Origin: a virus
Taxonomy: Duplodnaviria > Heunggongvirae > Uroviricota > Caudoviricetes
Virus record (IMG/VR): IMGVR_UViG_2651869755_000015
Span: 1 to 42,292 of that record
Direction: 5' to 3' (one strand)
Length of the DNA: 42,292 nt
This document shows, piece after piece, positions 1 through 40,525 of this stretch (positions are counted from its first letter, which is position 1; every line of letters starts with the position of its first letter). Both the position numbers and the translations under genes were made by a program. Under the pieces are notes generated by a model. It did not search any database. It was given only the letters and a program-made list of their open reading frames with translations, and was not told the origin of the DNA.

Positions 1-1257
1 GTGCTTACCGATACAAAATTAAAAAACCTCAAGCCGCAGGACAAACTGTACAAGGTCTCCGATCGTGACGGGCTGTATGTAGCTGTGCTTACGTCAGGTA
101 CGGTCTCGTTTCGCTATGACTACCGTATCAACGGTCGCCGCGAAACACTGGTAATCGGGCAGTATGGGCGTGACGGTATCAGCCTGGCAGAAGCGCGGGA
201 AGAACTGATTGCTGCAAAGAAGCTGCTTAAAGCAGGCCAGTCGCCGGCTGCGGCTAAACGTGACGGTATCAAAAAGATTCGTGGTGCCGAGACGTTTGCG
301 GTACATACCGACAGTTATATGAAACACGTCATCCTGGCTGACAGTACCCGCGCAATGAAGCAGGCGGTGATCGACCGTGACATACTTCCGGTTCTTGGCA
401 ACAAAATGATGGCTGAAATTACCACATCGATGGTTCGTGATTTGTGTGACCGGATTGTCGAACGCGGCGGCCGGGCAACAGCAGTGCAGGCCAGGGAGAT
501 CATCAGCAGCGTATACCGTCATGCCAATGACCGTGGTCATGGTTTGTTTAATCCTGCTGCTGACATTAAACCTTCGTCTATCGCCATATTTAAACCACGA
601 GAGCGAACACTGACACCAGAAGAAATTGGTCTGTTCTTCCGCACGCTGGATGCCATTGGTGCTATGGGCACTATGAAAATGGCTTTAAAGTTGGTGCTTA
701 TCACTATGGTTCGTAAAGGCGAATTCACCAATGCAACGTGGGATGAAATAGATTTTAAAAAATGGACATGGACAATTCCTTCAGACCGCATGAAAGGAAG
801 CCGGGCGCACGTTATTTACCTGCCTAAACAGGCACAGGATATATTGGTCGGGTTGCAGATGTGCGCTGGTGGAAGTGAATACCTGGTTCCTGGTCGTTAC
901 AATTTCCGGAAGCCATTATCTAATGCCGCGTTGAACTCTCTGATCGACAGAACGGTGAAAATAATAAATGAAGATGGTGAGCATATTCAGGACTTCACCG
1001 TACACGATATGCGCCGTACAGCCAGTACGTTGTTGCATGAGGCTGGTTATCCTTCAGACTGGATTGAAAAGGCTCTGGCACATGAGCAGAAAGGTGTGCG
1101 CGCCGTATATAACAAAGCGGAATACGCCAGACAGCGCGCCTACATGTTGCAGCAGTGGGCAGATATGATTGATTCCTGGATTGACGGGGAGCATACGGAT
1201 CTGATTCCGTTCTCCCCGTCGAAGTTTGAGAAGTGGATGGAAGACAGTAATAAATAA
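1..1257 (+). CDS. int: Tyrosine-type phage integrase; true start may lie just upstream of the window
   Basis: 418-aa ORF beginning with GTG at base 1; N-terminal LTDTKLKNLKP...YKVSDRDGLYV arm-binding-type region typical of P4/CP4-57-like integrases; C-terminal catalytic-type motifs (VHDMRRTASTLL; AVYNKAEYARQRAY). Confidence 0.85.
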   Translation: MLTDTKLKNLKPQDKLYKVSDRDGLYVAVLTSGTVSFRYDYRINGRRETLVIGQYGRDGISLAEAREELIAAKKLLKAGQSPAAAKRDGIKKIRGAETFAVHTDSYMKHVILADSTRAMKQAVIDRDILPVLGNKMMAEITTSMVRDLCDRIVERGGRATAVQAREIISSVYRHANDRGHGLFNPAADIKPSSIAIFKPRERTLTPEEIGLFFRTLDAIGAMGTMKMALKLVLITMVRKGEFTNATWDEIDFKKWTWTIPSDRMKGSRAHVIYLPKQAQDILVGLQMCAGGSEYLVPGRYNFRKPLSNAALNSLIDRTVKIINEDGEHIQDFTVHDMRRTASTLLHEAGYPSDWIEKALAHEQKGVRAVYNKAEYARQRAYMLQQWADMIDSWIDGEHTDLIPFSPSKFEKWMEDSNK

Positions 1258-1259
1258 TT

Positions 1260-1919
1260 CTATCCTTCCTGGACTTTGGTAAGCGTCAGATTTCCGCAGA
1301 ACACTGCGCCGGTGTCGATGTACATTTGGTTTGCATACACCAGTGGGTGATGTGCTGGCGTATGACCGAAGATGAACAAATCGGCACCGGTTATCTCCGA
1401 GACAATACCGTCCTGCGCGTCGCTAACCCGCTCACGATTCCATATCACCATTTCTTCCGGTACTGGCTTATCGAATGCGTATTCGTTGTGCGGGTAGTCT
1501 GCGTGGCAGATGACGACCTTCTTATTGCCGGTAACCAGTTCGATAATCATCGGGAGGTTGGTAACCTTTGGCAGAAGGTATTTGAGTTGCACATCCTGCT
1601 CAGAATCAAGTTGGTGCCACCATCCACCGCCGTTTGACATCCAATGTCCGAAACTTCCGCCGTTGACCAGTGCATCCAGCATCATCTGCTCATGGTTGCC
1701 ACGAACAGCTCGGAACCACGGCATAGTAATCAAATCCAGGCATTCGACGTTTTCAGCGCCGCGGTCAACAAGGTCACCAACGGAAATAAGCAAATCGCGC
1801 GCCGGGTCGAATGAAACTTTGTCGAGTTCGTTCATCAGCAGCGTGTAGCACCCATGCAGATCGCCGACGACGAAGATATTGCACCAGTCAGCGCCATTGA
1901 TGCGTTGATATAGGTTCAT
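1260..1919 (-). CDS. Ser/Thr protein phosphatase, calcineurin-like metallophosphoesterase (lambda PPase family)
   Basis: ATG at 1919 (ORF track extends upstream to 2039); motifs GDLHG, GDLVDRG, GNHE characteristic of PPP-family phosphatases. Confidence 0.85.
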
Positions 1920-2566
1920 GCTGCACGCTCCCGCCCCTGGTTGTCTGTTGGTGACAGCGGAGCATTGCTGAATGCATTTGTTAATCCGCCGATATCCAAC
2001 GCGTATCCAGGGTGTAGTTGTACTGCCGGATCTTCGCACTGATTACCCCAAACATCGAAGCCATGAGACGGCTGGCGGGCGAACAGTTCAATGCGAGAAA
2101 CATCTCCTAACAATTGCACAAGTTTTTCACGAACGACATCTGGTTTTCTTGAGTGCTCAAGCCGCGGTGCGGTAAATGACTGAACGATCCCTGCATTAAT
2201 GCGCGTAGGTAGTTTTCCCTTTACCGCAAACAGGCAATCTTCACTATTGGCGCGAGTCATGTGACCCATACCCATAACCAGTTTATCTGGTTGTCGACTA
2301 CCACATTTTATCCACGTGAAGCCCTTCATGGTCATAAGACGGAATTCCCAGGCTTCAACAACTTTTAGTGCTTCGAGTGGTTGTGTTGGCACCCACCACA
2401 TGGCCAACAGACAGTTTTCATCGGCCAAATCCCACACAGGAAGGCGGCAGATATCCAGCACACTCATAACCGGATATTTAAAACCGGCACCGCGATTACC
2501 ATCTGTGGCTTTGTCCCGGTATACCCAGGGTGGATCTGCATAGATTAGTGTGTATTTCTTAGTCAT
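1916..2566 (-). CDS. MT-A70 family DNA N6-adenine methyltransferase
   Basis: ATG at 2566; N-terminal YADPPW (DPPW) catalytic motif; 4-nt overlap with the downstream phosphatase gene. Confidence 0.75.
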
Positions 2567-2858
2567 AAACCACCCCACAACATCCTATGCCGCTATAGTC
2601 GCCACGGCGAAGGCCGTTACCTTTTGTGATACATTGGTCCCTGCGAACCGCGATCCTTGCACGCTCAACATCACCAGAAGCAACATCCATACACTGAAGC
2701 CAAAGGTGGGCGGCAATGCGGAACTGCCCTTTTTTCTCTCTTTCAATCGCGCGTTTTTCGATCTCTATCGCCGCAGGAGTAACGGCAACAACCTTTGAAG
2801 GGCTGCGCATTGAAACCTTGTTCATGTGATATTTTTCAAGTCGGCTTAACTTTCTCAC
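2559..2858 (-). CDS. Hypothetical protein (99 aa)
   Basis: ORF overlapping the methyltransferase start by 8 nt, consistent with operon membership; no motif recognised. Confidence 0.35.
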   Translation of the reverse strand: MRKLSRLEKYHMNKVSMRSPSKVVAVTPAAIEIEKRAIEREKKGQFRIAAHLWLQCMDVASGDVERARIAVRRDQCITKGNGLRRGDYSGIGCCGVVYD

Positions 2859-2967
2859 TTAATCCAACCCTCTCTGAAAATTAATGCCAGCAGATAAAGC
2901 CATGCTGAAACAGAGGCCAGGAATAAGTACCATCCTGACCATTTGCTCCAGTGCCTTAGCAGCGCAC

Positions 2968-3216
2968 TCATGCAGCGTTGCTCACAGGACGATATACACG
3001 TTGCTGAACAGGAGGTTTTTTACCCTGGAACTCTGCCGGGCTTGCTGCCTGACGTTCATCAAGCCAACGCTCAACTTCATCACGGTTCCATGCGCAGCGT
3101 TTATCGGTGATATACCAGCGTTTAGGAAATTCCCCTGCGCGCTCCATACGGTCGATAGTGCTCCATGACAGTGGCACCACCGCCAGGAGTTCCTTCTTAC
3201 CTAATGCACCTTTCAT
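2968..3216 (-). CDS. AlpA/excisionase-like HTH DNA-binding protein (possible Xis)
   Basis: 82-aa protein with winged-HTH-like segment LSWSTIDRMERAGEFPKRWYITDKRCAWNRDEVERWL resembling AlpA/Xis family proteins. Confidence 0.55.
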   Translation of the reverse strand: MKGALGKKELLAVVPLSWSTIDRMERAGEFPKRWYITDKRCAWNRDEVERWLDERQAASPAEFQGKKPPVQQRVYRPVSNAA

Positions 3217-3265
3217 AAATACCTCTCTTGGTTGCAGTGCGGCGCGCGTGGCGCCGCGGTGGTGG

Positions 3266-4147
3266 TTACATAGATGTTTCGTTTAATTCTTCCCGACGAA
3301 CGCTGTAAACGTCGGTGGCTTTTGCCAGCAGTTCGTCATCATCTGAAAGTTTTTGTGCAATGTATTTGTAAGCCTTATCCAGTTCGGAGACAGTGCTGTA
3401 ATTCATCGCTGCGCTGGTAAAGGCCATCAGCATTTCTTCTGGATCACGGCTATCCGCTTTACGCGTTTGCTCATCAGGCTTTTTCGCTGGTTTAGCGTTG
3501 ATCAGACTGTTCATTCCCGCAGCAGTGGTCGTTTGCGGAGTAATGTCTCGCTCAACGCGCGGTGCCGTTTCCTGTAATTCGTCAGGGGTGTAAACACCGA
3601 GAAGTACATCAGGAGCGTGCAGGCGAGCCCATCGTTTCGTGCAAAGATAGGCAAGCTGCTGGCGCGGATCCTGTTCCCACAATGGAGAGTTACGCACTCC
3701 GGCTTGCGCCATACTGATGGTAAGCTCACGTGGTTCTGCTTCTCCTTTAAGGACTGCTGACACAGTTACCGTCAGATTCGGTGATTTATCTGTTTTGCCG
3801 TTAACATTCGACCAGTCACCGCTCCAGCGATAATTCAGGCGTGTCGCTAGCAGGCTGGAAGAGGATACGACCGCGTTTACCAACTGTGCTTCGTAGCCTA
3901 ACGTTCCGTTTACCACATGCGTTTTCTGCGCCACGGCGAAAGGGTTCATTCCCCACTGTGCCGCCTGCATGGTCACCGCCAGGCAATCGGCAGGTTTGCC
4001 TTCAAGATGTTTCGGTACAGTCGCTTTGCTTTGTGACATCAACTCAGCGAAACGCACCAGTTGATTCATGCCCTCGGGGCTGAAGATTGCCGCAGCAGTG
4101 CCTACAGTTGCGCCTGGTTGTGATGTGATTGCGATATCATTGCTCAT
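3266..4147 (-). CDS. Red-beta/RecT-family single-strand annealing recombinase
   Basis: 293-aa protein; segments MQAAQWGMNPFAVAQKTHVVNGTLGYEAQLVNAVV and ERDITPQ resemble lambda Bet (recalled sequence); ATGA overlap with the upstream exonuclease gene. Confidence 0.7.
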   Translation of the reverse strand: MSNDIAITSQPGATVGTAAAIFSPEGMNQLVRFAELMSQSKATVPKHLEGKPADCLAVTMQAAQWGMNPFAVAQKTHVVNGTLGYEAQLVNAVVSSSSLLATRLNYRWSGDWSNVNGKTDKSPNLTVTVSAVLKGEAEPRELTISMAQAGVRNSPLWEQDPRQQLAYLCTKRWARLHAPDVLLGVYTPDELQETAPRVERDITPQTTTAAGMNSLINAKPAKKPDEQTRKADSRDPEEMLMAFTSAAMNYSTVSELDKAYKYIAQKLSDDDELLAKATDVYSVRREELNETSM

Positions 4148-4965
4148 ACGTACATATCCTGTTTACGTGCCCAGTCAGGGCGTTTAATAATTTCCACTCC
4201 GCCCCATTCATCGTTGATGCGGCATTCGTGATAGGTATTCAGATCCCGGCGGAACAGAGCGTGCCCGGCATCGACATCTGGTGCATCCAGCTCGAACACG
4301 CGTACCGGATACCGACCACAATCAATGCTTTCGCTCACGGCAAGAAAGAAAAAACCATGCGGCTGACCAGTAACCCTCATTGCGCCTTCGCGGTACATTG
4401 CGTCCTGCACGTGGTAGCGGAATTCCTCGATGTGGCGTGCAAAACGGTCCATATCTGCAACCTTTTTCACGTCGACGATCACGTTGTGCTCGTTCAGCCA
4501 TTTGTCTGGACGAATTCGGCACAACTCACCCGTCTCTTCATCGTTCCAGTACATTGATGCTTCGCAGTAACCAGGTGCTTCCAGCATCCAGCGTGCCGCC
4601 GGATGAGCCATTGCGCTATCACGCATCAGCTCCAGTTTTCGCCACTGCTCGACATCAAGTACCGTAATACCCATATCCGCCACATCACGAAGAAATGCTT
4701 CTTCGTCAGCTTTACCTTGTTTTGTCCGACGATCGAACTTCGGTGAAACAATGAAGCGTTTGTCGAATTCTCCAGGCTCCAGAAGCAGACAGTGCAATGC
4801 GGTTCCCATATCCAGTGCAGACTTTTTCTCTTCGTCTTCTGGTGCTGCCTGAACCCATTTAAGAAGCGCCGGATTCTTGGCAACCATGTCCAGTTGCGAC
4901 TTACTCACGCCGTCACCGGCGTGGTAGTCTTCGTTGCTGATGTCGAAATAAATTCCCGGTTTCAT
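4144..4965 (-). CDS. RecE-family 5'-3' exonuclease (PD-(D/E)xK-type, exonuclease VIII-like short form)
   Basis: 273-aa protein immediately upstream of and translationally coupled to the annealing protein; resembles short phage RecE-like exonucleases. Confidence 0.65.
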   Translation of the reverse strand: MKPGIYFDISNEDYHAGDGVSKSQLDMVAKNPALLKWVQAAPEDEEKKSALDMGTALHCLLLEPGEFDKRFIVSPKFDRRTKQGKADEEAFLRDVADMGITVLDVEQWRKLELMRDSAMAHPAARWMLEAPGYCEASMYWNDEETGELCRIRPDKWLNEHNVIVDVKKVADMDRFARHIEEFRYHVQDAMYREGAMRVTGQPHGFFFLAVSESIDCGRYPVRVFELDAPDVDAGHALFRRDLNTYHECRINDEWGGVEIIKRPDWARKQDMYV

Positions 4966-5569: not shown

Positions 5570-6154
5570 TTATTGTTTGCTTTTTTCGTTCTGGTTGATG
5601 ACAAATTCAATGTAACTTTCGATCTTTGCCTTCTCTGTTTCAGGTAACAATGCGTAGCGCGAGCGGTCATAGTTGATAGTTGCAGGGTCATGCGGATGAA
5701 TCAGTAGTTCATATCCGTGACGCCCGAATGCAGATGCAACATTCTCCAGGGTGGAAATGGAAACGCTGACCTCATTGTTTAACAGGCGGCTGATTGTCAC
5801 CTGGGCGACGCCGGATGCGCGGTGAAGTTTTCCCTGAGTTGAAAGGTCGCGGCTTTCGCTCATCCAGCGTTCCAGGTTGTGAGCCGCCAGCTGACCAATG
5901 TCGCTTGGGCCGACAGGCTGAAAACCTTCCTGAGAAAGCGAGCGATCGATATCAAGCCAGTTACGGGGTTTATTGGCGGCAGCTTCAATTTTTCGCGCAA
6001 CCTGGTCGCCGATAACCTTCTTGCCAAGAGCCCAGCGGTTTACCAGATTTGCCTGAGTTCCAAGTTTTTCAGCCATCCGCGTCTGAACACCATTGAATTC
6101 ACGGTCGATCAAGTCGTTGAGATTTTGCCTGCGGACGTCCTGGATACTTTTCAT
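5570..6154 (-). CDS. Prophage repressor, tandem HTH (XRE-type), no obvious peptidase S24 domain
   Basis: 194 aa; two HTH-like segments (VQTRMAEKLGTQANLVNRW; VAQVTISRLLNNEVSVSISTLENVASAF); divergent from a Cro-like gene with three operators between them; no Ala-Gly/Ser-Lys autocleavage signature seen. Confidence 0.65.
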   Translation of the reverse strand: MKSIQDVRRQNLNDLIDREFNGVQTRMAEKLGTQANLVNRWALGKKVIGDQVARKIEAAANKPRNWLDIDRSLSQEGFQPVGPSDIGQLAAHNLERWMSESRDLSTQGKLHRASGVAQVTISRLLNNEVSVSISTLENVASAFGRHGYELLIHPHDPATINYDRSRYALLPETEKAKIESYIEFVINQNEKSKQ

Positions 6155-15202: not shown

Positions 15203-15279
15203 TGGCGTGGCATGCAGGATTCGAACCTGCGACCAACCGCTTAGAAGGCGGTTGCTCTGTCCAACTGAGCTAATGCCAC
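15203..15279 (-). tRNA. tRNA-Arg (anticodon UCU)
   Basis: Minus-strand 77-nt sequence GTGGCATTAGCTCAGTTGGACAGAGCAACCGCCTTCTAAGCGGTTGGTCGCAGGTTCGAATCCTGCATGCCACGCCA folds as a cloverleaf (7-bp acceptor stem, GTTCGAATC T-loop, anticodon loop CTTCTAA, 3' CCA). Confidence 0.85.
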
Positions 15280-33838: not shown

Positions 33839-34573
33839 TCAGAAGAACCCTGCCTTGTCGTTGATGTACTCCGCGTGGGTCTGGATATCACGCAGGCATT
33901 TGCTCACACCGACGATGTAGCAGAACATGGTGGTCAGCTCCGCCGCCGCGCCCGATACGTCGTGCCCGTCTTCCTGTAACTGGTTCAGCAGATTCATCAG
34001 CAGTGAGTTCTCCGTCAGGCCGAGAACACCAGACGGCGAATGAATCAGGCTGCGGTAGCCGGGCTTCAGTGGGGCACTGTATTCTTTTTTGTCTTCCAGC
34101 TTGATCGCCTCCATAATGGCGGGCATGAATTTTTCAATTACCTGAGTGGCCTTTGATAAATCAGCTCCACCTGAGAGACGAACATCTCCACTGACATTTG
34201 CGGGTTTTCTGTCGAAGTAGCAATCTTCCAGTTTTTCGAAGACCTCCCACGCTTTTTCAGTCTCAAGAATTTTCGCATGTCGTGCTGCACCGCGAGCGGT
34301 CCATAAGAAAAGATGACTTACTTTTGGTGCAATATTAAGCAAACCTCTTTGAGAGGACTCGTTCTTAAATGCTCGTAATTCTTCGCCTATCAGCTTGAAA
34401 CAATGTTTTCCCTCAATGAATCGATCTGCATTTCGTTGATAGTTTTGACGAATCAGTTTGGGTTCTGTGTCATACAAATCAGCAAGCATTTCTGTAGTCA
34501 TTACAGGGATGTTGCAATGAGTTGTTATCGGCAACTTATCAATAGCTATATTACGCATTTTCATTGCCTCCAT
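33839..34573 (-). CDS. Antirepressor-like protein (ORF6N/Ant N-terminal domain plus C-terminal domain)
   Basis: N-terminal VMTTEMLADLYDTEPKLIRQNYQRNADRFIEGKHCFKL matches the ORF6N/Ant pattern; C-terminal ~70 aa homologous to the 35372-35629 product. Start may be 34558 or 34564. Confidence 0.65.
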   Translation of the reverse strand: MEAMKMRNIAIDKLPITTHCNIPVMTTEMLADLYDTEPKLIRQNYQRNADRFIEGKHCFKLIGEELRAFKNESSQRGLLNIAPKVSHLFLWTARGAARHAKILETEKAWEVFEKLEDCYFDRKPANVSGDVRLSGGADLSKATQVIEKFMPAIMEAIKLEDKKEYSAPLKPGYRSLIHSPSGVLGLTENSLLMNLLNQLQEDGHDVSGAAAELTTMFCYIVGVSKCLRDIQTHAEYINDKAGFF

Positions 34574-35057
34574 CTTTCACGACGAAATAGCAATTATCTT
34601 TATAATCTAACTGGATGAACTTTATGTTTTCAGGGAGTTTTACAGAAAGAGTTTTTGCACAAGCAAAACCAAAATCTGCGCCAGAAGCATCCATATACCT
34701 TAATAATTGTTTTAATGCTGAAGGAGAAAAAGTATCTACCTTCACCTCAACAGGGTAACCATCTTTTGTTTTTAGGTCTGGTTGACCTGGTCCACCAAGT
34801 ATTTCAGCGTTAAGGTATTTTGCTATTTCTGGATAAGCGTTGTATTCAGAGCGTAGTTTTGCCTTGTTATCGACTGCTAGTTGCATAAGATGATCAAACA
34901 AATTGGTATCTAAATCTGCCCCTTCATCCCACATTCTATTTCTACAGCTAATCAATTCACTGACCAGTGGTGCACTTTCTTGCCTTAGCATAAGAAGGAG
35001 TGGAGAATTAGAAATTAACCAATACAGATCGTCGTTTGAGATTTTTTGGCCTGGCAT
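34551..35057 (-). CDS. Hypothetical protein (168 aa) co-transcribed with antirepressor
   Basis: ORF with stop overlapping the ant start region. Confidence 0.45.
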   Translation of the reverse strand: MPGQKISNDDLYWLISNSPLLLMLRQESAPLVSELISCRNRMWDEGADLDTNLFDHLMQLAVDNKAKLRSEYNAYPEIAKYLNAEILGGPGQPDLKTKDGYPVEVKVDTFSPSALKQLLRYMDASGADFGFACAKTLSVKLPENIKFIQLDYKDNCYFVVKDGGNENA

Positions 35058-35211
35058 AGCGATACCTCTACTAGTAAGTTACCCACCACCGCAACGCCAA
35101 TTGCTGGTGGTGAACTGGACAAGGTTGGCGTACCGGCCTAGTAGGTACCGGCGCACCTTTCGGTGCCCCTGCCCAGCCCACCATAATTCGGATATGACTG
35201 TGCTATACGCA

Positions 35212-35235
35212 TAAAAAAACCACGTCTGGCGTGGT
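35212..35235 (-). terminator. Rho-independent terminator downstream of small antirepressor gene
   Basis: Minus strand ACCACGCCAGACGTGGT followed by TTTTTTT. Confidence 0.55.
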
Positions 35236-35325
35236 ATGCGCCTACTAGTAATCCGGGACGCCAATCCCGGCACTGGATTTTGCCAGTGCCTGATTACTAT
35301 GGCACAAGAGGAGTGCGATGTAAAT

Positions 35326-35824: not shown

Positions 35825-38800
35825 ATGACGGTCTCAACCGAAGTTGACCACAACGAATACACAGGTAACGGCGTTACGACATCATTTCCGTATACCTTTA
35901 GGGTTTTCAAGGAATCTGATCTGGCAGTACAGGTGGTTGACCTTGACGAAAATATCGCTGTGCTGGCTCTTGATACTGATTACACTGTCACTGGGGCTGG
36001 TGGATATAATGGCGGTAATGTAATTCTGTCGAAGGCGTTAGCTAACGGTTATCAGATTTCTATATCACGAGAGCTACCAGTTACGCAGGAAACTGATCTG
36101 CGAAATCAGGGAAAGTTTTTCGCTGAGGTGCATGAAGACGCGTTAGATAAGCTGACGATGCTGATACAGCAAGTCCGCGGTTGGTTTAGCCTGGCGCTGC
36201 GCAAGCCATCATTTGTGGCAAACTATTACGATGCTTTGAATAATTACATCCGCAATTTGCGCGATCCTTCCAAGCCTCAAGATGCAGCTACAAAGAATTA
36301 TGTTGATAATATTGTTAATGTGAATATTAACAGGACATTACGGGTTCCAGATAATTTTATTGAACCACTTCCTCCAGTTCATTTACTGGAAGAAACTGTC
36401 ATTGGTATCGTCAATGGTAAACCTATAGGTGTACCTGTGCCTTCTGGCAGTGCCGCAGATGTTCTTCTGCAATTATCTAGCGCAGGAGAAGGAAAAGGTG
36501 ATGCATTAATTGGTGTAAGGCAGCCATTTGCCGGGGCTGTAACTATAACTCAGCATGAAAACAATGCTCTTTTCTTAAATGTAAAACAATTCGGAGCAAT
36601 TGGGGATGGGAAATATCATCCATTATCTGAGAGGTTTTCTTCAATTTCTGAAGCAAAATCCTTATATCCTTTTGTTGACTCATTATCTCAGTCAATAGAC
36701 TGGGCCGCGTGGCAAGCTGCCATTAACACAGGAAAGGTTATTTATGGTACTGATAATGCGTATGTAATAACGGATACGTTAACACCTGTTTCTGGTGGTG
36801 GGATAATTGGTCTTGGTGTGGGCAAATGGGTCTCCGGATATACTGCAACATTTGCTCCTGATATTACCACAGGGACCACATTCCTGATGTACGGTGTAGG
36901 AAATAAAAAATATACTGTAGATTGTGTTTCTAATATGGATGTTAGTGGTGGTGTGGTTTCTAATCCATCTTCCGAAGACCCGTATACAACAACGGCACCT
37001 GCGTCATCATATGATTTATTGGATTTTACTAACGGTGATGCTAATGGGGCTACAAGAGCCACGCTTAAACCATTCTCTGCCGCAATATTGATGCCAGAGA
37101 CAGGGTGTGTTCGCCTTGAGAACTTTCGTATTGTTCCATATTTCAATGGGCTGGATGGTTATAAAGACATTGCAAATACCGGTCTTGGCGATGAGTGGGA
37201 TGTAGGTATTTGGTCACGTGCGTCTTTTGGCAATGAATACCGCAATTTGCAGGTGGTTGGATACTGGCGCAAGACGGCACTTTTAAAAACGAACATTCCT
37301 GTATCTGGCACGCTGGCCGCTCAGGGCGAGGATGAAAACTATTATCACTGTAGATTCCAGGGATTCAAGGGTGTTTCGATCCGCGCCCATGATGTATTCC
37401 GAATTACAGCGGTAACGTCCAGCACTATCGAAATCCCATGGTCAGCAAGCCACACCTTCGAAACGTCCGGGGTTTTAAGATCGGGAGGCAGGAATTTCAC
37501 TTATTCAGGATTATCCGTATCCGGTGATAAGTTAGTATTTACTGGAGTGTCTAACGCTTCTGAGGCAACAGTAGGTTCTACTATACGGCGAAATGACATA
37601 GATAACTTTGGTATGGCGGGAACGCAATTTTTCGATTGCTACATTACCAGCCTGTATCACCACACACATCTGCTTGCCACATCGCAATACCTGTCTCAGC
37701 CATTCAGCCGGCCATCAGAGTGTATGGAGGTTTCAGGGGAACCAGTTCGCGGTGTACAGGTACATGCAGGAACCATTCAGGGATGGGATGATGTTCTTAT
37801 TCATCTACATGACTGTGGAAATATGAACTTTTACAGTACATATTTCGAAAGCCAGCCAGCATATGTAACTATAAATGGTGGTAATGCTATTGGTTATGGA
37901 GCACGTATGATAGCTTCCCGGCAATCAACAAGCTCATTACCATATGCAGCAGGGAATACTCGAGTGCTTAGAATGGTCGGGTGCTCTGAAGGCAATGGCG
38001 TTGACTGGGGTCCTGTATTTAACAACTATACAGGAGGAAGATATAATTCTGGAGACGGTGTATTTAACCCCCGCGATGCATTTATAGACCATAAATCTCT
38101 TCCTGAGCAGTCAGGAGGTGAGTCAAGACTCGTATCACAAAAAGGAAATGCCAGAGTAGTATGTGGTGTTGGTAAAACTGTACTGCTTGGACCAACGTCA
38201 GGAGATTGTAATTTACAGAGCAATACTGGAAGTTTAAATATTAGAAGTGGGATAAGAGTAAGAATCGGTCACGCTGATGGAACAGACTGGTGGTTGGCAG
38301 ATGCTAATAAAATAGCTCCTGTTGATGATAATGTTAAAGCTATTGGACAGCCATCAAACAGATGCTCTGTTATCTATGCAGGAACCGGGTCAATCAATAC
38401 GTCAGATGAAACTCTTAAAACAAGATATGATATTCTTAATGCAGAGCGTAATGCCGCTATTGAAATAAAGTCAGTCATCTATAAATTTAAATTTAATGAC
38501 TCAATTAATCACAAAGGAATTGAGTCGTCCAGGTATCATTTTGGCGTTGGCGCTCAAACCGTAGGGGATATTCTTAGAAAGCATGGTTTAAACCCGGAGC
38601 AATATGCTTTTTGGTGTTACGATGAATGGCCTGACGTATGGGATGAAGAGGTGATAACTGAAGAGAGCACAGATCCTGATACAGGTGAGAAAATTTATTC
38701 TCAATATAAAACAGGAGATATGATTCTTGTAAAAAAAGCAGGAGGACGCTACGGAATTCGTTATGACGAATTAGCCATGTTTATATTAATGTCAATGTAA
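35825..38800 (+). CDS. Tailspike/tail fibre with T7 gp17-like N-terminal adaptor and C-terminal intramolecular chaperone-like domain
   Basis: 991 aa; N-terminus TGNGVTTSFPYTFRVF...DTDYTV parallels the recalled T7 gp17 N-domain; Gly/Thr/Ser-rich central region; C-terminal ~150 aa resemble auto-cleaving chaperone (S74-like) domains. Confidence 0.75.
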   Translation: MTVSTEVDHNEYTGNGVTTSFPYTFRVFKESDLAVQVVDLDENIAVLALDTDYTVTGAGGYNGGNVILSKALANGYQISISRELPVTQETDLRNQGKFFAEVHEDALDKLTMLIQQVRGWFSLALRKPSFVANYYDALNNYIRNLRDPSKPQDAATKNYVDNIVNVNINRTLRVPDNFIEPLPPVHLLEETVIGIVNGKPIGVPVPSGSAADVLLQLSSAGEGKGDALIGVRQPFAGAVTITQHENNALFLNVKQFGAIGDGKYHPLSERFSSISEAKSLYPFVDSLSQSIDWAAWQAAINTGKVIYGTDNAYVITDTLTPVSGGGIIGLGVGKWVSGYTATFAPDITTGTTFLMYGVGNKKYTVDCVSNMDVSGGVVSNPSSEDPYTTTAPASSYDLLDFTNGDANGATRATLKPFSAAILMPETGCVRLENFRIVPYFNGLDGYKDIANTGLGDEWDVGIWSRASFGNEYRNLQVVGYWRKTALLKTNIPVSGTLAAQGEDENYYHCRFQGFKGVSIRAHDVFRITAVTSSTIEIPWSASHTFETSGVLRSGGRNFTYSGLSVSGDKLVFTGVSNASEATVGSTIRRNDIDNFGMAGTQFFDCYITSLYHHTHLLATSQYLSQPFSRPSECMEVSGEPVRGVQVHAGTIQGWDDVLIHLHDCGNMNFYSTYFESQPAYVTINGGNAIGYGARMIASRQSTSSLPYAAGNTRVLRMVGCSEGNGVDWGPVFNNYTGGRYNSGDGVFNPRDAFIDHKSLPEQSGGESRLVSQKGNARVVCGVGKTVLLGPTSGDCNLQSNTGSLNIRSGIRVRIGHADGTDWWLADANKIAPVDDNVKAIGQPSNRCSVIYAGTGSINTSDETLKTRYDILNAERNAAIEIKSVIYKFKFNDSINHKGIESSRYHFGVGAQTVGDILRKHGLNPEQYAFWCYDEWPDVWDEEVITEESTDPDTGEKIYSQYKTGDMILVKKAGGRYGIRYDELAMFILMSM

Positions 38801-39611: not shown

Positions 39612-39906
39612 GCTTTTTTTGCTTATCACCAATGCGGTTATTTGCGCCGGTATAGCAGTTCGAGTTGCCACATTTCGGAGAAACGGTTCTCAACACAGGC
39701 GATGGGGTGGGTGGCTTGCTTATTTCCTGATTGTTGCTGCGGCCAGCATTCCAGTTCGTGTCGCTTATGCAATCTGGTTACGCACGCCAATGGCTGTGGA
39801 TTTATCTGAGGTCATTATCAACGCTGTCATGCTTGCCGCGGTTATTAAAACACGCGGTAACGTTGTTCAGATTTTCAAAATATCGAGGTCTAAACATGGA
39901 GATTAA
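39598..39906 (+). CDS. Holin-like membrane protein
   Basis: 102 aa with about 3 TM segments, basic C-terminus; overlaps endolysin start by 11 nt. Confidence 0.5.
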
Positions 39907-40525
39907 ACAATTCCAGCGAGCTGCTGGTATTAGCGAGGCGCTGGCCGCACGCTGGTTCTCGCATATAACTTCTGCGATGAAAGAGTTTGGTATCAGCAAA
40001 CCAGAAGATCTGGCAATGTTTATTGCTCAGGTCGGGCATGAGTCTGTGGGCTTCACCCGGTTGCAGGAGAATTTCAACTACAGCGTCAGCGGACTGGCTA
40101 ACTTCGTTCGGGCTGGGCGTCTCACTCAGGGGCAGGCTAATGCACTGGGGCGACGTGCTGGTGAGCCACCATTGCCACTCGAGCGCCAGCGAGCGATCGC
40201 CAATCTGGTGTACAGCAAACGCATGGGGAACAATGCCCCTGGTGACGGCTGGAACTACCGTGGGCGCGGACTTATCCAGATTACCGGTTTGAATAACTAT
40301 CGTGACTGTGGAAACGGTCTTAAGGTTGACCTGCTGGAGAGTCCTGAACTGCTGGCGCAGGACGAATACGCGGCTCGTAGCGCGGCGTGGTTCTTCTCCA
40401 GCAAAGGCTGCATGAAGTATACCGGAGATATTGCACGTGTAACTCTGCTTATCAATGGTGGCCGGAACGGCATTGATGACCGGCGCGCGCGATACATAAC
40501 TGCCAGTAAGGTGCTGGCGGTATGA
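39896..40525 (+). CDS. Endolysin, glycoside hydrolase family 19 (chitinase-like lysozyme)
   Basis: ATG at 39896 after GAGG; GH19 signature [15 protein letters not shown]. Confidence 0.8.

Follow-up and report, generated by a model that had tools for sequence, protein, structure and literature searches.

We find that the methyltransferase gene and the phosphatase gene standing side by side near one end of this prophage are both real, intact, and ordinary cargo of a common E. coli prophage, and that their adjacency is the product of cassette exchange, not a conserved functional unit. The window, by which we mean the whole 42,292-nucleotide stretch of DNA that was analyzed, is an epsilon15/phiV10-like (Uetakevirus) podovirus prophage of E. 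coli. The two genes are the final two of its early-left (recombination/excision) operon. A swap slot with two main alleles, one of which is the phosphatase, separates the methyltransferase gene from the integrase gene, int. We consider it quite probable that this explanation holds as a whole, with an epsilon15/phiV10-like operon end, a GATC-type methyltransferase, a NinI cassette, and an adjacency made by exchange. In essence, two well-known families have been correctly annotated in a prophage that is common, and the practical value of the finding is modest.

The end of the early-left operon

Region 1-3300 of the window shares 98% DNA identity with Escherichia phage vB_EcoP_PAS61 (OQ921333) and, with the exception of the phosphatase, with phiV10 (NC_007804), both members of the genus Uetakevirus. 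PAS61 has the identical gene order of int, phosphatase, methyltransferase, PerC-like gene, AlpA, and RecT, and its annotation names a "serine/threonine protein phosphatase NinI" and an "adenine DNA methyltransferase"; both genes are thus already known from a cultured phage that was deposited and annotated with the same arrangement. The remaining content of the window is consistent with a complete Uetakevirus-type prophage and includes genes for a cI-like repressor (5570-6154), an antirepressor with C4 and isrK RNAs (33.8-35.3 kb), a tailspike (35825-38800), and an endolysin (39731-40525). Rfam searches returned no match in 1-3300; matches were found elsewhere, at 15.2 kb and 35.1-35.3 kb. At a DNA identity of at least 95%, the region from int to the methyltransferase gene is present in 546 of the 5,426 complete E. 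coli genomes (~10%) in which all of our population counts were taken.

The phosphatase gene occupies 1260..1919 on the minus strand (ATG at 1919, stop at 1260-1262) and encodes 219 amino acids beginning with MNLYQRING. The methyltransferase gene, at 1916..2566 on the same strand (ATG at 2566, stop at 1916-1918), encodes 216 amino acids. Longer, GTG-started open reading frames exist at 1260-2039 and 1916-2578, but the family profiles and the deposited annotation both correspond to the shorter forms. As the original prediction had it, the two genes overlap by 4 nt, the four bases ATGA (1916..1919, minus strand) being common to the stop of the methyltransferase gene and the start of the phosphatase gene in the sequence itself. 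Its placement of both genes beside int, where the leftward operon ends, was also borne out: only 2 nt separate the phosphatase stop from the stop of int, a P4-type tyrosine integrase gene (1..1257, plus strand; Arm-DNA-bind_3, Phage_int_M, and Phage_integrase domains; PHROG 1) that converges with the operon.

Upstream of the methyltransferase gene lies a gene for a 99-amino-acid PerC-family small regulator (2559..2858, minus strand; PF06069, E=6e-07; PHROG 868, E=6.5e-62, residues 1-99 of 99), the end of which overlaps the methyltransferase start by 8 nt. This overlapping gene had been overlooked in the original prediction. A PerC-like gene upstream of the methyltransferase gene is conserved in Uetakevirus-type loci, often with other genes intervening. 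Farther upstream, the operon context comprises an AlpA-type excisionase/regulator (2968..3216, minus strand; PF05930; PHROG 66), followed by RecT (3266-4147, minus strand) and a PDDEXK exonuclease (4144-4965, minus strand), two genes of the same operon that were identified by profile matches and share 4 nt. From 5276 down to 1260, genes abut or overlap by 4-8 nt, with a 49-nt gap as the single exception. Our promoter/terminator scan predicted no minus-strand terminator-like site from 5520 to 1260; its counts did not rise above those of shuffled sequence, and it yielded no arguable internal promoter. The operon can fairly be presumed to be co-transcribed from a promoter just below the repressor gene.

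An exchangeable slot between the methyltransferase gene and int

Comparison with related phages revealed that the position between the methyltransferase gene and int holds different genes in different genomes. In phiV10 the phosphatase is replaced by a 64-amino-acid DUF1382 protein with the same ATGA overlap; SPN1S carries a 59-amino-acid protein there, epsilon15 a 60-amino-acid "transacetylase repressor", and the window the phosphatase. The borders of the cassette are the start codon of the slot gene and the last codons of int. The upstream border coincides with the ATGA overlap, and the downstream border, located by alignment with phiV10, SPN1S, and epsilon15 and by the C-terminal translations, consists of the last int codons and the 2-nt spacer (1240..1259). 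The integrase ends in ...WMEDSNK in every phosphatase-bearing genome examined, whereas that of phiV10, with the DUF1382 allele, has a C-terminal tail of its own, ...WMAGE. phiV10 has the ATGA junction with DUF1382, and all phosphatase-bearing relatives that we examined have it as well; the translational coupling that it provides goes with the slot and not with the methyltransferase-phosphatase pair.

The population counts speak against the two genes as a pair, which is how they had been presented in the original prediction. Among the complete E. coli genomes, the slot carries the DUF1382 allele in 373 and the phosphatase allele (at least 95% identity) in 146 (~2.7%), so that, of the E. coli prophages in which one or the other allele was scored, 72% have DUF1382 at the identical junction. 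Roughly 27 further genomes with a prophage of this type carry neither of the two. When the 80 closest IMG/VR phosphatase loci were inspected, 54 had the methyltransferase-phosphatase-int arrangement (84-100% identity), while the other 26 (78-92% identity) lay in other places and lacked the methyltransferase gene. The examples examined among those 26 were lambdoid nin regions, with the phosphatase gene between NinB-like and NinG-like genes. Unlike these nin-region genes, the phosphatase gene of the window belongs to a podovirus prophage and lies next to int, as the final gene of its operon. Viewed from the methyltransferase side, only one of 40 loci from other species had a phosphatase gene within 4 kb. 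This locus, a nin region of Ewingella, consists in order of NinB, the methyltransferase, two small open reading frames, NinI, and NinG; its methyltransferase and NinI genes are ~860 nt apart and both are ordinary nin cargo. Given that each gene recurs without the other, both belong to the mobile accessory pool of temperate enterobacterial phages. The phosphatase is a NinI orthologue derived from a lambdoid nin region, and it probably entered the slot when recombination in the conserved sequence on either side exchanged the cassettes.

We also considered that the two genes form a co-adapted module and are translationally coupled because they work together, with the methyltransferase perhaps under the control of the phosphatase or with a single host pathway as the target of both. 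The ATGA overlap would be in keeping with such a module, as would the occurrence of both genes in one unrelated lambdoid nin region, that of Ewingella, and the persistence of the arrangement in L100 and L101, two diverged Uetakevirus relatives in which the same slot holds a phosphatase 84% identical to ours next to an integrase 80-89% and a methyltransferase 51-81% identical. Because the phosphatase cassette is also present in these diverged relatives, it has long been kept in the slot, and this retention leaves some room for a functional link with the methyltransferase. The distribution of the genes nevertheless largely refutes the module: DUF1382 is the prevalent occupant of the identical junction, 39 of the 40 methyltransferase loci in other species have no phosphatase gene nearby, and about a third of the closest phosphatase loci do without the methyltransferase. 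Lambda itself is known to have NinI with no MT-A70 gene adjacent to it. Since the phosphatase is a swap-slot allele and the two genes rarely co-occur, co-transcription is not evidence of joint function, and we regard a co-adapted module as very improbable compared with neighbors brought together by cassette exchange.

An MT-A70 methyltransferase with a contested substrate

The assignment of the upstream gene to the MT-A70 family on the strength of a DPPW motif was upheld by profile searches. Residues 5-176 cover positions 1-172 of 172 of the PF05063 (MT-A70) profile (E=8.5e-21; 75.1 bits against a cut-off of 23.9), and PHROG 359, "DNA methyltransferase", matches with E=2e-118. The DPPW motif lies near the N-terminus, at residues 11-14, in the permuted motif order of the family, and a conserved C-terminal ELFxR...WGNQ segment aligns with MTA1. 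Across 34 homologues, residues D11, P12, P13, W14, E160, F162, W173, G174, and N175 vary little or not at all. The AlphaFold2 model, which is of moderate confidence only (pLDDT 70.8, pTM 0.72), is a bare, stand-alone MT-A70 catalytic domain with no extra domain, and by this model the enzyme appears to have no target-recognition domain. Its top PDB matches were the METTL3 catalytic domain (E=1e-10, TM 0.60-0.65) and then MTA1; in the sequence comparison, MTA1, a DNA m6A enzyme, was the best match of known structure. The METTL3-METTL14 complex and the Tetrahymena MTA1-MTA9-p1-p2 complex thus share the catalytic fold and the DPPW motif with the phage enzyme, but METTL3 and MTA1 are only 18-22% identical to it in structural alignments, and both complexes are obligate heteromers with separate nucleic-acid-binding subunits, in contrast to the bare catalytic domain encoded here.

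This methyltransferase is a standard gene of its phage group. It recurs across the genus, being found in phiV10, epsilon15, SPN1S, and Tyrion, and is common to Stx-converting phages. It is 97.7% identical to phiV10 gp33 and, over residues 1-187, 82.9% identical (E=1e-121) to M.EcoPA8orf6770P, the gp5 of phiPA8. The 2,905 proteins in its 90%-identity cluster go by the names "MT-A70 family methyltransferase" or "adenine methylase", and nearly all homologues among the matches listed are stand-alone proteins of ~195-216 amino acids. The gene is under purifying selection, with a dN/dS of 0.05 against the Stx-phage orthologue; the comparison with L100 was left out because of indels. There is no cognate restriction endonuclease gene beside it, the immediate neighbors being the PerC-like gene and the phosphatase gene, and PADLOC returned only generic MTase_II (Type II) models for the methyltransferase and nothing for its neighbors. 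Its description as an orphan enzyme therefore agrees with the gene content and with PADLOC.

The original prediction went on to call the enzyme a DNA N6-adenine methyltransferase. Of this label, the MT-A70 family stands, while DNA as the settled substrate does not; the label is contested because the accounts for orthologous enzymes diverge between GATC in DNA (REBASE; Fang et al., 2012) and 16S rRNA (Gong et al., 2023). These orthologues are M.EcoPA8orf6770P and M.EcoGV of Stx2-converting phages, which are reported to be highly similar to each other (PMC10810198) and which share with our enzyme the DPPW motif and the location at the int-proximal end of the leftward operon. As far as the accounts in PMC10810198 and PMC6602927 go, REBASE relatives of the M.EcoPA8orf6770P clade are annotated as GATC enzymes, and M.EcoGV, when overproduced, methylated GATC in vivo (Fang et al., 2012, as cited in PMC10810198 and in table 3 of PMC6602927). 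By contrast, purified M.EcoPA8orf6770P methylated DNA in vitro neither at GATC nor elsewhere (Gong et al., 2023; PMC10810198). It binds PNB-2, the product of its upstream gene, and the complex prefers 16S rRNA and 30S subunits (Gong, Chakraborty, and Koudelka; PMC10810198). The active phiPA8 enzyme increases spontaneous Stx prophage induction, a phenotype that is abolished by a DPPW-to-APPA mutation, and the modified rRNA base was not mapped in that study (PMC10810198).

The statement in the original prediction that target specificity is not deducible takes no account of this studied orthologue, 83% identical over residues 1-187. The substrates reported for it, GATC DNA or 16S rRNA, are nonetheless those of the Stx-phage enzymes only, and the loci differ in their surroundings. 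There, the upstream gene encodes PNB-2, and a DUF1382 gene follows with a 41-nt overlap; here, the upstream gene is PerC-like, and the phosphatase gene follows with the ATGA overlap. No PNB-2 homologue was detected anywhere in the 42-kb window (best tblastn E=0.83), the PerC-like protein has no BLASTP similarity to PNB-2, and no DUF1382 homologue was found elsewhere in the window. Moreover, the alignment of our methyltransferase with the Stx enzyme stops at residue 187, beyond which its 29-residue tail is unrelated to the 21-residue Stx tail. Because these C-terminal 29 residues differ, specificity may differ from that of the Stx enzyme.

With these differences in mind, we give about even odds that the true activity is the N6-methylation of adenine in DNA, with GATC as the most likely site. 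The enzyme would move a methyl group from S-adenosylmethionine (SAM) to the N6 of adenine, its most likely target being GATC in DNA as reported for the related M.EcoGV, and such methylation of phage DNA during its replication would supplement that by host Dam or take its place. The GATC count of the window (152 observed against 202 expected under a Markov model) is a mild under-representation, which is uninformative on specificity in a Dam+ host. Methylation of rRNA or other RNA takes a clearly smaller share, and another DNA motif accounts for most of the remaining probability. The strongest form of the RNA alternative is that the protein is mainly a 16S rRNA m6A methyltransferase tuning spontaneous prophage induction. 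It draws on the rRNA and 30S preference of the Stx-phage orthologue with PNB-2, on the inactivity of that orthologue alone on DNA in vitro together with the effect of its DPPW-to-APPA mutation, and on the presence of METTL3, an RNA methyltransferase, among the closest solved folds. It is weakened by the missing homologue of PNB-2, the protein credited with the preference for rRNA, and by the different tail of our enzyme, since the authors suspect the STEC-type C-terminal tail of binding PNB-2 (PMC10810198). The unmapped base, the in vivo GATC methylation by M.EcoGV (as cited in PMC10810198 and PMC6602927), and the fact that MTA1, the best solved match by sequence, is a DNA m6A enzyme also weigh against an rRNA substrate, and we consider it unlikely. 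With no PNB-2 encoded in the window, this methyltransferase offers a clean test case for the dispute between GATC DNA and 16S rRNA.

Whatever the substrate, the methyltransferase likely needs a partner or self-association, and its active form is probably an oligomer or a complex with a small protein. Because it has no target-recognition domain in the model, it is possibly a catalytic subunit whose target is set by a partner, and the candidates may be the upstream PerC-like protein or the downstream slot protein, which is DUF1382 in phiV10 and the Stx phages. If so, the exchange of DUF1382 for the phosphatase would change what the enzyme methylates, and the two slot alleles would represent two functional states. 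We regard as a long shot the reading that such a coupled small protein sets the methyltransferase target and that, separately, the phosphatase reverses phosphorylation by kinases of superinfecting phages; in that event, phosphorylation used by a superinfecting phage to disarm host defenses would be undone by the prophage phosphatase. On a related matter, the published "MTase + PNB-2" construct was made with a reverse primer that anneals to the end of the DUF1382 gene. The DUF1382 gene is therefore inside that construct as well, which calls for caution in interpreting work on the holoenzyme.

A lambda-type phosphatase as slot cargo

The downstream gene had been described as encoding a lambda-PPase-like phosphatase, and the family matches agree with this. 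The protein matches Metallophos (PF00149; E=1.2e-15) and PHROG 246, "NinI-like serine-threonine phosphatase" (E=9e-108), and aligns without gaps with the lambda phosphatase NinI (ORF221; PDB 1G5B) from residues 1-217 to 1-217 at 66.8% identity (E=6.7e-100). The GDxHG, GDxxDRG, and GNHE motifs and two downstream histidines are present. All of the metal and phosphate ligands of the lambda enzyme in the 1G5B structure are conserved (D20, H22, D49, R53, N75, H76, H139, R162, and H186). The scores stayed below the equivalog cut-offs of NF008516 and NF007425 (266 bits against 326 and 221.5 against 332, in that order), the two NCBIfam models for the E. coli serine/threonine phosphatases (PrpA and PrpB); the protein is therefore of the phage NinI type. 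Like the methyltransferase, it is under purifying selection, with a dN/dS of 0.07-0.15 against six alleles. Judged by sequence, it is a competent lambda-type metallophosphatase.

The activity of lambda phosphatase on proteins phosphorylated at Ser, Thr, Tyr, or His is established. By this analogy, the most economical reading is that the phosphatase would act as a metal-dependent phosphoprotein phosphatase and dephosphorylate host or phage phosphoproteins after induction. We know of no established biological role of NinI, even in lambda, and our literature search on the role of NinI or of phage phosphatases in counter-defense found nothing specific. The roles proposed in the original prediction, namely interference with host phosphosignaling by the phosphatase and protection from restriction by the methyltransferase, are putative and reasonable as ideas.

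Alternatively, the phosphatase might target nucleic-acid ends or signaling nucleotides, such as 2',3'-cyclic phosphates or Np4N-type caps, and thus serve as an RNA-repair or anti-defense enzyme. Weaker matches of the protein to ApaH, PrpE, and the Pnkp phosphatase domain are consistent with a non-protein substrate, and lambda phosphatase reportedly has 2',3'-cyclic phosphodiesterase activity in vitro. An anti-defense role would also suit the location, given that int-proximal slots of temperate phages often hold defense or counter-defense cargo and that in SPN1S a DGQHR protein adjoins the same methyltransferase. However, the phosphatase is colinear over its full length, at 67% identity, with a phosphoprotein enzyme, it has no PADLOC match, and its surroundings bear no sign of RNA repair, with no ligase or kinase gene nearby. 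We therefore think a nucleic-acid or nucleotide substrate quite unlikely and favor phosphoproteins.

For the question of what NinI does, PAS61 with the phosphatase and phiV10 with DUF1382 constitute a closely matched natural pair. The identical phosphatase protein occurs on at least 1,000 public contigs, where it is named "serine/threonine protein phosphatase".

DUF1382 and the MT-A70 methyltransferase gene

The MT-A70 methyltransferase gene is followed at its 3′ end by a DUF1382 gene in two unrelated groups of phages, those of the phiV10 type and Stx phages. In phiV10, the DUF1382 gene (2755-2949) overlaps the methyltransferase gene by 4 nt, while in the Stx phages, including phiPA8, it lies downstream of the methyltransferase gene with a 41-nt overlap. 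The DUF1382 proteins of phiV10 and the Stx phages share 49% amino acid identity. The association of the MT-A70 gene with DUF1382 is more persistent than its association with the phosphatase gene. A different arrangement was seen in a single IMG/VR contig (L095), where DUF1382 (2658-2843) is located upstream of the methyltransferase gene and the phosphatase gene downstream.

The same neighbor is also carried by a published plasmid. The primers reported for the "MTase + PNB-2" construct of phiPA8 (PMC10810198) cover gp6 (PNB-2), gp5 (the methyltransferase), and the entire DUF1382 gene gp4 (KP682374, 2056-3282), with the reverse primer annealing to the 3′-terminal part of gp4 (2056-2074). Because the primers span all of gp4, DUF1382 was present in the construct that defined the MTase/PNB-2 holoenzyme.

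Variation around the methyltransferase gene

On the upstream side, the Salmonella phage SPN1S differs by carrying a gene for a DGQHR-domain (DndB-like) protein (3517-4512) directly 5′ of the same methyltransferase gene, with a 4-nt overlap. A second position of variable content thus exists between the methyltransferase and PerC-like genes. Rare in-frame fusions of these two genes were found in public assemblies, each in one contig (P0033, 297 aa; P0031, 263 aa); these could be either genuine, arising across the 8-nt overlap, or artifacts of assembly.

Two deposited phage records match the region from the integrase gene to the methyltransferase gene at 98% identity: "Escherichia phage BP9" (PP488543.1; 138,295 bp), with the phosphatase gene included, and "phage PH444" (PP350014.1; 114,913 bp), without it and at 80% coverage in two pieces. 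Both records are three times as long as a Uetakevirus genome, and may be composite or misassembled.

Other features of the window

The sole intergenic gap of the leftward operon separates recT from alpA (3217-3265) and contains a G+C-rich inverted repeat, GCGGCGCGCGTGGCGCCGCGG; at the corresponding site, the epsilon15 annotation gives a stem-loop for transcriptional pausing.

Rfam hits on the minus strand at 35103-35289 comprise a C4 antisense RNA, scoring 76.7 bits, and isrK, scoring 68.1 bits. Immediately 3′ of both, on the same strand at 33839-35057, come an ORF of 168 aa and an antirepressor gene assigned to PHROG 1760. These elements constitute a P1/P7-style c4-ant immunity module within a Uetakevirus prophage. 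The N-terminal domain of this antirepressor shares 57% identity with PNB-1 of phiPA8.

The prophage also contains a minus-strand tRNA-Arg gene (anticodon TCT; 15203-15279), which adjoins a 140-aa minus-strand ORF (PHROG 4846); the surrounding region is otherwise plus-strand.
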